NCBI GenBank assembly: GCA_035328405.1
Contig: DAOLIT010000112.1
Coordinates: 1-15,076 of the forward strand
Length of the DNA stretch: 15,076 nt
DNA from: Pseudomonadota bacterium
GTDB lineage: Bacteria; Myxococcota_A; Polyangia; Palsa-1104; JAEUJZ01
Direction: 5' to 3'
Below the pieces are notes generated by a model. The model was not told where the DNA came from. It searched no databases and saw only the letters and a list, made by a program, of their open reading frames with translations. A program made the position numbers and the translations under genes. Positions within the stretch are counted from its first letter, which is position 1. Every line of letters begins with the position of its first letter. Below, piece by piece: positions 10,709-12,173 of this stretch.

Positions 10709-11728
10709 TTAGGAAACCTTGCGTCGGGCACCGGGCACATCCAGCAGCACATCCGCCAGCGCATCGGCCAGCGGAAAGTGAGGTTCGTAATGTTGCAGCC
10801 AAAAGCACTCGCCGACGGGATTCGCTTCCAGAAAGACGTATCGACCGCTCGGTTCGACAATCATGTCGATCGCGCTGTATTGCACGCCCATCACCTGCAT
10901 GTAGGCGCGCAGTTTTTCTTCGATCTCGGCGGGCAACGTGTGTAGCTGCCACGCATTCACCAACGCCAGGCCGCGCTCGCGCCAATCGGTTTCTGCACCT
11001 TCCATCGCTTGCGAATCCACGGCTGCGGTGAAGAACCGCTGGCCGACCACCGTGATGCGCAGCTCCAGTTTTTTGGGGATGTGCTCTTGAAACACCATCG
11101 GGCAAAAACGCAACTGGTCGAGTTTTTCCAAAAGTTCGGGCCGAAACTTCGTCGTGAACACCACCTGTTCCCGGCCCTGTTCGTCATAGATCGCAAACGA
11201 CGCAAGCATCTTGACGACCGCGCCGTTCGAGCAACTTCCCAAAAACGAACGCGCCTCTTCGGGATGGTTGGTCATGATCGTCCGAGGCGTCACCAGGCCG
11301 ACCTTTCGGGCGACGGCTTGTTGATACGGTTTGTTTTCGTTGGTTCGGACCCGTGCGGGTGGGTCCATCACAAAACACGGCGCGGCTTGCAGCACGCCCC
11401 GCGACAGCGCAATCGTTTCATCCAGACTGGCGCGCAGGAATTGCCGGTCCATGCTTTTGGGCAACTTCGCGCCCCACTTCGCGCGTCGATAAAAAATCGC
11501 ATCGTGCGCACCGATCGTGTGTGAAGCGCCTTCCAGCCAAAACCGCAATTGCTCGCCGTGTTCGTCTTGAAAAAACGTGACCTGGTTCTCGACCGGAAAT
11601 TCGTCCGTATTCCATCGCAGCATGCGCCCGCCGCGCGCGTCGATCGCTTTGTCCAGCTCGGACAAAAGGCCCGTGACATCTTCTGTGTGCGTCACGACCA
11701 AGACTTGCTTCAGATCCTGTGTGCCCAT
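10709..11728 (-). CDS. Graspetide (microviridin/marinostatin-class RiPP) macrocyclase: ATP-grasp ligase of the MdnB/MdnC (MvdC/MvdD) family
   Basis: From Met 11728: 'MGTQDLKQVLVVTHTEDVTG...FYRRAKWGAKLPKSMDRQFLRASLDE...QFCPMVFQEHIPKKLELRITVVGQRFFTAAVDSQAMEGAETDWR...AIDMIVEPSGRYVFLEANPVGECFWL'. This matches MdnC-type blocks such as 'WYRRMRYGLKLPDGMDSQFREASL', 'ELRITIVGEQIFTAAINSQ..DWR' and 'AIDMIVTPDERYIFLEINPVGEFFWL'. The ORF-track start at 11800 is a 24-codon upstream extension. Confidence 0.85.
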   Translation of the reverse strand: MGTQDLKQVLVVTHTEDVTGLLSELDKAIDARGGRMLRWNTDEFPVENQVTFFQDEHGEQLRFWLEGASHTIGAHDAIFYRRAKWGAKLPKSMDRQFLRASLDETIALSRGVLQAAPCFVMDPPARVRTNENKPYQQAVARKVGLVTPRTIMTNHPEEARSFLGSCSNGAVVKMLASFAIYDEQGREQVVFTTKFRPELLEKLDQLRFCPMVFQEHIPKKLELRITVVGQRFFTAAVDSQAMEGAETDWRERGLALVNAWQLHTLPAEIEEKLRAYMQVMGVQYSAIDMIVEPSGRYVFLEANPVGECFWLQHYEPHFPLADALADVLLDVPGARRKVS

Positions 11729-11878
11729 GTCGGAAACCCCATTGTGTTTTGCAGGCCTTGCAGACTGGAGCGGCAAGGGCGGAAGCGACACCGCCCCCAC
11801 CGCAGACAGCCTCTGCGCCCCAAACCAGTCGCTTGCTAGCCGCTTGGGCCATTGTCTGGGAGCGCGTTGGGTCTTTGT

Positions 11879-12055
11879 CTAGATGTTGATGGGATCGGCA
11901 TCGTCGTCGCTCGGGTATCGCAACGTCGGAGGCGGATCGGAGTCAGATGGGAATTTCTTGGTTGTGTCGGCTTGCAGATCCGAATCCCTGATTTGTTCCG
12001 ACAACAGGTGGGCAAAGAAAGGCAGGTTTTGGCCGTCGACAATTTTTCTGGACAT
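11879..12055 (-). CDS. Graspetide precursor peptide (58 aa) with a PFFARFL-type leader motif and two tandem marinostatin-like cores
   Basis: Translation from ATG 12055, which has an AGGGGGA SD at 6-nt spacing: 'MSRKIVDGQNLPFFAHLLSEQIRDSDLQADTTKKFPSDSDPPPTLRYPSDDDADPINI*'. The leader 'LPFFAHLL' matches the microviridin leader recognition motif PFFARFL. The cores 'TTKKFPSDSD' and 'TLRYPSDDDAD' match marinostatin 'ATMRYPSDSDE' and the microviridin TxKYPSD(W)EE consensus. It lies 150 bp upstream of the ATP-grasp gene. The stop TAG is at 11879-11881. Confidence 0.7.
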   Translation of the reverse strand: MSRKIVDGQNLPFFAHLLSEQIRDSDLQADTTKKFPSDSDPPPTLRYPSDDDADPINI

Positions 12056-12173
12056 GTTTTTCCCCCTCATGTCCCGCTGGAACACCACCTTGGTGATCCT
12101 TTTGTGGAGGGCGGGACGGTGGTCATGATGAAACAGAAATGTTCAGCCGAGAAGGTCTCCATTGACCCCACTG

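Follow-up and report, generated by a model that had tools for sequence, protein, structure and literature searches.

Marinostatin and marinostatin E (Alteromonas, Algicola) are bicyclic 12-15-mer inhibitors of serine proteases. Marinostatin E, ATMRYPSDSDEDGFN, is bicyclic, carries Met at P1 and inhibits chymotrypsin and subtilisin (PMC10125368). Specificity is set by P1, with Arg or Lys favouring trypsin and subtilisin, and Leu favouring elastase and subtilisin (PMC7823629). The PFFARFL-type leader helix is bound by MdnC-type ligases (PMC7823629, PMC5934393). [quoted passage not shown] MdnB is commonly missing, which results in marinostatin-type products that derive from microviridins (PMC7823629).

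Precursors with more than one core have been published as well, including class II precursors with up to five cores, the action of AMdnC on three cores, and the ester-only multicore chryseoviridin (PMC7823629, PMC5934393, PMC10125368). With the three-core AMdnA, AMdnC was shown to process the cores independently, closing the larger ring first and forming two lactones in each (PMC5934393). An N-terminal His tag on the precursor was found to block this enzyme. Chryseoviridin is active against several serine proteases (PMC10125368). In the classes of Ahmed et al. 2017, as these are recounted in PMC7823629 and PMC13039773, double-glycine motifs and a C39 transporter are usual for class II microviridin precursors but not obligatory.

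The window analysed here is the whole 15,076-nucleotide stretch of contig DAOLIT010000112.1. It contains a compact three-gene cassette of a 58-aa precursor, one ligase and one exporter. Judged from its sequence and surroundings, the short ORF is likely a functional group 1 graspetide precursor of class II layout with marinostatin-type, ester-only chemistry. The cassette is predicted to yield two ester-stapled protease-inhibitor units with different specificities, and leaves the current understanding of graspetide biosynthesis unchanged.

Precursor, ligase and exporter

The features of the locus are collected in Table 1. A preliminary description had proposed a 58-aa ORF with a strong Shine-Dalgarno site, a PFFARFL-type leader LPFFAHLL, two cores fitting the Thr...Asp / Ser...Asp pattern of marinostatin, and a single ligase at 10709-11728. 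All of these features were recovered. The ORF occupies exactly 11879-12055 on the minus strand (the strand had been left unstated) and translates, from 12055 to 11879 with the stop included, as MSRKIVDGQNLPFFAHLLSEQIRDSDLQADTTKKFPSDSDPPPTLRYPSDDDADPINI; translation of the same interval on the plus strand is meaningless. The site GAGGGGG at 12068..12062 is kept in both allele groups. The leader is present as quoted, both cores carry all four ester positions, and the gene at 10709-11728 codes for an ester-type ATP-grasp enzyme. The further statements that the ORF was unannotated, and of a kind routinely missed by gene callers, did not hold. The identical GenBank protein HMU41239.1 is already named 'microviridin/marinostatin family tricyclic proteinase inhibitor', and the ORF was annotated by gene callers on 26/26 contigs, some of them from activated-sludge metagenomes such as SRR2308827; the longest related contig spans 53.9 kb. 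The term 'tricyclic' in that name is probably inaccurate; it was taken from the family model and not from this sequence.

Table 1. Positions of the features of the graspetide locus and of the export-apparatus genes in the window
Feature	Coordinates	Strand	Basis or remark
Precursor peptide gene, 58 codons plus stop	11879..12055	minus	translation; NCBIfam NF033738; identity to HMU41239.1
Shine-Dalgarno-like GAGGGGG	12062..12068	minus	read from sequence; 6 bases 5' of ATG
Leader recognition motif PFFAHLL, residues 12-18	12002..12022	minus	PFFARFL-type helix
Core 1, T32-K-K-F-P-S37-D38-S-D40	11936..11962	minus	predicted esters T32-D38, S37-D40; P1 K33
Pro-Pro-Pro linker between cores	11927..11935	minus	translation
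Core 2, T44-L-R-Y-P-S49-D50-D-D52	11900..11926	minus	predicted esters T44-D50, S49-D52; P1 L45
C-terminal tail (follower), A-D-P-I-N-I	11882..11899	minus	translation; N57D variant in second allele group
13-bp G+C-rich hairpin in precursor-ligase gap (150 nt)	11770..11803	minus	fold; whole region z = -1.7, not significant
MdnC/MvdD-type (omega-ester-forming) ATP-grasp ligase, 339 aa	10709..11728	minus	TIGR04184; 5IG9 match
ABC exporter (MdnE-like), 601 aa	8888..10693	minus	Pfam ABC_membrane and ABC_tran only
FliO-like	3557..3144	minus	
FliP/SctR	3204..2494	minus	
Bac_export_3/SctS	2497..2243	minus	

Comparison of the ORF with models of microviridin precursors and with Pfam Inhibitor_I10, as had been suggested in that description, gave a divided result. 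The precursor scored 33 bits against NF033738, the NCBIfam microviridin/marinostatin RiPP model (cutoff 26, E = 7.9e-8), and 16.8 bits against Inhibitor_I10, below the Pfam gathering threshold of 21; the former was taken as the decisive family model. In 300 dinucleotide-preserving shuffles of the window the combination of leader and core in one segment was obtained 0 times, as was the strict core T..[YFW]PSD.[DE], which occurs twice in the real sequence. The window holds only 284 stop-to-stop segments of >=20 aa. Chance origin of the precursor motifs is excluded. Another PFF..FL match, near 3649, is in a coreless segment of 57 aa and was set aside as a chance match.

GC3 in the precursor frame is 0.66 (0.70-0.76 in the neighbouring genes), the GC profile by codon position fits a coding sequence, and ORFs on the opposite strand or in other frames over the locus gave no family matches. 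The ORF has an in-frame alternative start, GTG at 12088, upstream of the ATG; the ATG is favoured, since the precursors of relatives also start with MSKK. A promoter scan found no sigma-70-like promoter, and the only terminator-like matches in the terminator scan were on the other strand. Two allele groups, drawn from several metagenomes, both retain an intact ORF. These differ within it only by N57D and by a 6-nt in-frame duplication, the sole indel, which adds Asp-Thr immediately before core 1; both core motifs are identical between the groups while the flanks vary. Divergence is too low for dN/dS.

LPFFAHLL (residues 11-18) matches the leaders that are paired with the closest ligase clade. 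It is followed by two tandem occurrences of T-x-[KR]-[YF]-P-S-D-x-[DE], TKKFPSDSD and TLRYPSDDD, so that the layout is that of class II, a single leader and then tandem cores. Both occurrences carry the marinostatin positions Thr(i)-Asp(i+6) and Ser(i+5)-Asp(i+8). All of the ester-forming Thr, Ser and Asp residues are thus kept, and the lactam positions are replaced. In core 1 Lys is retained at position 3, with Pro rather than an acid at position 10, which leaves it without a lactam partner; in core 2 Arg replaces Lys at position 3 and Ala stands at position 10, making a lactam impossible. The linker is the shortest, and the sole all-proline one, among the multi-core relatives compared, and no GG occurs anywhere in the precursor. 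An Asp-Pro bond follows both cores (DSD|PPP at 11935-11937 and DAD|PINI at 11893-11895, minus strand). The Asp-Pro bond is the most acid-labile peptide bond.

The ligase gene lies on the strand of the precursor and begins 150 nt downstream. Its product scored 371 bits with TIGR04184 (MvdD), vs 239 for MvdC; the 371 bits fall under the NCBIfam equivalog cutoff of 475. It also matches PF21068. The best solved relative in the PDB is MdnC (5IG9; 278 bits, E = 9e-82), followed by CdnC (7MGV, 209 bits), 5IG8 (179) and AMdnB (7M4S, 162). K173 and D288 do not vary in the family alignment, and they lie in conserved blocks that align with MdnC. Scanning of all ORFs with the family HMM identified a single ATP-grasp gene in the window and in every strain variant, and no MdnB/MvdC-type amide ligase was detected in the 15-kb window or the variants with the ligase-family HMM. 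The specificity of the enzyme, which scores below the equivalog cutoff and is placed on a long branch (see below), could have shifted.

No C39 peptidase domain was found in the ABC exporter with Pfam, and the cluster contains no protease gene. The exporter gene follows directly on that of the ligase. Of all genes in the window it alone is conserved beside related ligases, as seen in 19 loci from outside the lineage of the window. The other neighbours (BNR/Ycf48-like, MVP-like, glycosyltransferase-like membrane protein and metallophosphoesterase) were rejected as cluster members, none being conserved beside related ligases. The hairpin in the gap between precursor and ligase folds well, but its fold does not stand out statistically from shuffles; it has no U-tract after it and was unreported by the terminator scan. 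It may, on weak grounds, act as an mRNA-stabilising or attenuating element, or set the ratio of precursor to enzyme transcript. The ligase has an alternative GTG start (11800), which is located within the hairpin.

Elsewhere in the window, the 986-aa protein encoded at 3710-6670 (minus strand) matches Pfam MVP_shoulder, Vault_3 and Vault_4, and about 520 of its residues can be aligned with rat/human major vault protein (query 390-910, MVP 274-777, E = 1.6e-20). Homologues of MVP in bacteria are already on record (bioRxiv 10.1101/872010). The gene shows no link to the graspetide cluster in other genomes. Directly downstream of it, at 2243-3557 (minus strand), is a type III secretion or flagellar export-apparatus trio, which in related contigs is followed by a Ser/Thr kinase gene.

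Ligase number and core type among relatives

Relatives of the ligase number in the hundreds at 53-61% identity, the named ones belonging to Nannocystaceae or Polyangia. The comparison set consisted of 78 genomic loci together with seven metagenomic loci (for four ligase relatives), all of which were scanned for precursors. In the Nannocystaceae/Polyangia type (ligase identity 54-61%) a PFFAHLL leader precedes one core, ...PTYHCLDSxCTKKYPSDDDE, and two ligases are followed by an ABC exporter; PFFAHLL was common to all precursors of this type that were found. Archangiaceae (Archangium, Cystobacter, Hyalangium and Vitiosangium; ligase identity 43-47%) have a PFFARLL leader, a GG motif, two ligases, and between one and three cores (in most cases two or three) of the form TxKYPSDxD[ED]. 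Locus L093 (55%) also has two ligases, and a precursor with two cores, ...PFFAHFLSEQ...TWKYPSDNDE-LI-TKKYPSDGDE-IRY. One ligase was found in five Archangium MAG loci (L042, L044-L046 and L050; 39-41%), together with 5-9 TMRYPSDNE cores.

In the two-ligase loci the additional enzyme scores best as MvdC-type, the amide former. A microviridin lactam requires Lys at core position 3 together with an acid, Glu or Asp, at position 10. Lactam-capable cores in this sense, one or more per precursor, were present in 41/41 precursors from two-ligase loci, and none was present in single-ligase loci. L038 looked like an exception to the rule, but only because its pair of ligases had been read as a single fused ORF. 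The presence of an amide ligase thus tracks perfectly with Lys3/acid10 cores across the comparison loci, which are mostly myxobacterial, and the correlation provides a simple rule for predicting a bicyclic or a tricyclic product from sequence. This comparative result is perhaps more useful than the ORF itself.

In a neighbour-joining tree the window ligase has a long branch and takes a basal position in the PFFAH[LF]L clade, beside L093. The arrangement in the window looks to be derived from a two-ligase ancestor making tricyclic products. The Archangium single-ligase group (L042/44/45/46/50) was placed elsewhere in the tree, apart from the window lineage, which indicates that the ester-only state arose at least twice.

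Precursors with two to nine cores were common in the comparison loci. When 1.84 billion representatives were searched exhaustively with phmmer, 16 non-self matches were obtained, all of the TxKYPSDxDE precursor type and all (16/16) with two to five cores; multi-core precursors are thus common in the family.

Several of the related loci have features of their own. In the Nannocystaceae-type precursors (L001-L017, L022 and L087-L091; the ORFs lie roughly 1 kb upstream from the ligase gene that was matched) an invariant PTYHCLDSxC stands directly before the core. This stretch holds a TxxxxD motif resembling the extra N-terminal lactone of 'class 2' microviridins (PMC12848669), and its two cysteines could form a disulfide; the window precursor is without it. 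Some precursors are very long, among them those of the five Archangium MAG loci with 5-9 marinostatin-like TMRYPSDNE cores (4915-5991 in L042). A Xenobia MAG (L048 1-1014) has at least 15 TxKYPSDGE cores in a precursor cut by the contig end, and a Burkholderiales-labelled MAG (L051 357-1004) has 6 cores behind an unusual PFWWQFL leader.

The MAG that contains the window is labelled 'Pseudomonadota bacterium' in GenBank, while the named close ligase relatives and the ABC exporter context are those of Myxococcota (Polyangia/Nannocystaceae). The sole exception among the close ligase relatives is L022, from a MAG also labelled 'Pseudomonadota'. The label is probably too coarse or wrong.

Predicted product and competing explanations

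The neighbouring ligase probably ties the precursor into two ester-bridged bicyclic units. The PFFAHLL helix would dock on and activate the ligase (11728..10709), as shown for MdnA/MdnC. Each core would then be handled independently, with the larger lactone (T32-D38 and T44-D50) closed first, as for AMdnC, and the smaller one (S37-D40 and S49-D52) second. Four esters in total would give a mass change of -72 Da. No lactam is expected, as the cluster has no amide-forming ligase and neither core has the Lys3/acid10 pair. The product would be exported by the ABC transporter, and the leader removed by an unlinked protease. The residue after each ring Thr would be P1 and sit in the S1 pocket of the protease. 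With Lys as P1 in core 1 and Leu in core 2, different protease targets are predicted, trypsin-like enzymes for the former and elastase-, subtilisin- or chymotrypsin-like enzymes for the latter. Genes for an amide ligase or a tailoring enzyme could lie outside the 15-kb window.

It is possible, and is put forward tentatively, that the two units are never separated, and that the mature product is an uncleaved tetracyclic 'double-headed' peptide made by one ligase, with a Lys-P1 and a Leu-P1 head on a rigid Pro-Pro-Pro spacer. The absence of a double-glycine site, of a C39 domain and of a protease in the cluster, taken with the linker, suggests that the product may stay in one piece: the linker is only three residues long and all Pro, and X-Pro bonds are poor endopeptidase substrates. 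There are also precedents, as chryseoviridin, a multicore product with esters only, is described as active in its entirety (PMC10125368) and plesiocin, going by the reference list of PMC8939145, has four bicyclic repeats per peptide. Such a product, about 25-30 residues long, would be a minimal inhibitor with two heads, one molecule of which could bind two different proteases, and would resemble a ribosomal, ester-stapled miniature of the Bowman-Birk inhibitors. However, the two to four linker residues of multi-core relatives could be the N-terminal overhang of the next core, marinostatin requires its two N-terminal residues for activity (PMC13039773), and the Asp-Pro after each core could be a shared processing site.

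It is unlikely that only one motif is a true core and the other a decaying duplicate or spacer, uncyclised or inactive. The 'quasi core' of AMdnA is only partly processed (PMC5934393), and core 1 runs straight into prolines and has Phe where most relatives have Tyr. Phe at this position is nevertheless common in relatives, neither motif has lost any of the four ester-forming residues or the Pro-Ser-Asp spacing, and both are identical in two allele groups the flanks of which are variable.

The locus might instead be what is left of a two-ligase microviridin cluster, silent or decaying and without a product, as the loss of one ligase and of the lactam residues, the long branch of the remaining ligase and the negative promoter scan would allow. 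This is distinctly improbable, given that the precursor, ligase and transporter ORFs are intact with the family-invariant residues present, that the ORF is kept across strains from several samples, and that an independent single-ligase, lactam-free lineage has expanded to 5-9 cores, which shows the state to be viable. A tricyclic product with a lactam from an amide ligase encoded elsewhere in the genome, of which 15 kb were examined, agrees with the PGAP family name and with the Lys kept at position 3 of core 1, but is highly improbable, as the acid position is Pro in core 1 and Ala in core 2, core 2 has Arg for Lys, and the related loci have an MvdC-type ligase between the precursor and the MvdD-type ligase where the window has the 150-nt gap. 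Two ester-bridged bicyclic units on one precursor remain the preferred prediction.

Comparison with described graspetide systems

The preliminary description had implied that the processing of several cores by one ligase was new. This was contradicted by published precedents (PMC7823629, PMC5934393, PMC10125368) and by the two- to nine-core relatives, which are common. The window is a further example of a well-described family in which multi-core and single-ligase ester-only clusters are already known. Its local peculiarities are the Pro-Pro-Pro linker, the lack of a double-glycine motif and the lack of a cluster protease.

Marinostatin shares with the window the core pattern T-x-R/K-[YF]-P-S-D-x-D (TMRYPSDSD, compared with TLRYPSDDD and TKKFPSDSD), an ester-only chemistry with no lactam (predicted in the window), one ATP-grasp ligase, and a leader of the PFFARFL type (PMC7823629, PMC10125368). 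The window differs in having two cores per precursor rather than one, in Lys and Leu rather than Met at P1, and in an apparently myxobacterial host, the hosts of marinostatin being gammaproteobacterial. No marinostatin cluster was present among the comparison loci; the Alteromonas locus (L075) was rejected as an authentic one, having a distant ATP-grasp enzyme (29% identity) and no marinostatin-like precursor.

The arrangement of one leader and several tandem cores is shared with AMdnA/AMdnC of Anabaena PCC 7120, also class II (PMC5934393, PMC7823629). Unlike the window, AMdn-type clusters have an amide ligase and lactam-capable cores, and usually double-glycine sites and a C39-peptidase transporter. 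Chryseoviridin (CdnA3/CdnC, Chryseobacterium) is likewise multicore and ester-only with no lactam (PMC10125368), but has a microviridin-type bicyclic core with extra single-ring motifs, whereas the window has two equivalent cores, both predicted to be bicyclic. The myxobacterial two-ligase clusters have the closest ligases (43-61% identity), PFFAH[LF]L or PFFARLL leaders and the same gene order, and those of the Nannocystaceae type also share the ABC exporter. What sets them apart is the MvdC-type ligase and the one or more Lys3/acid10 cores that they all carry, both being absent from the window.
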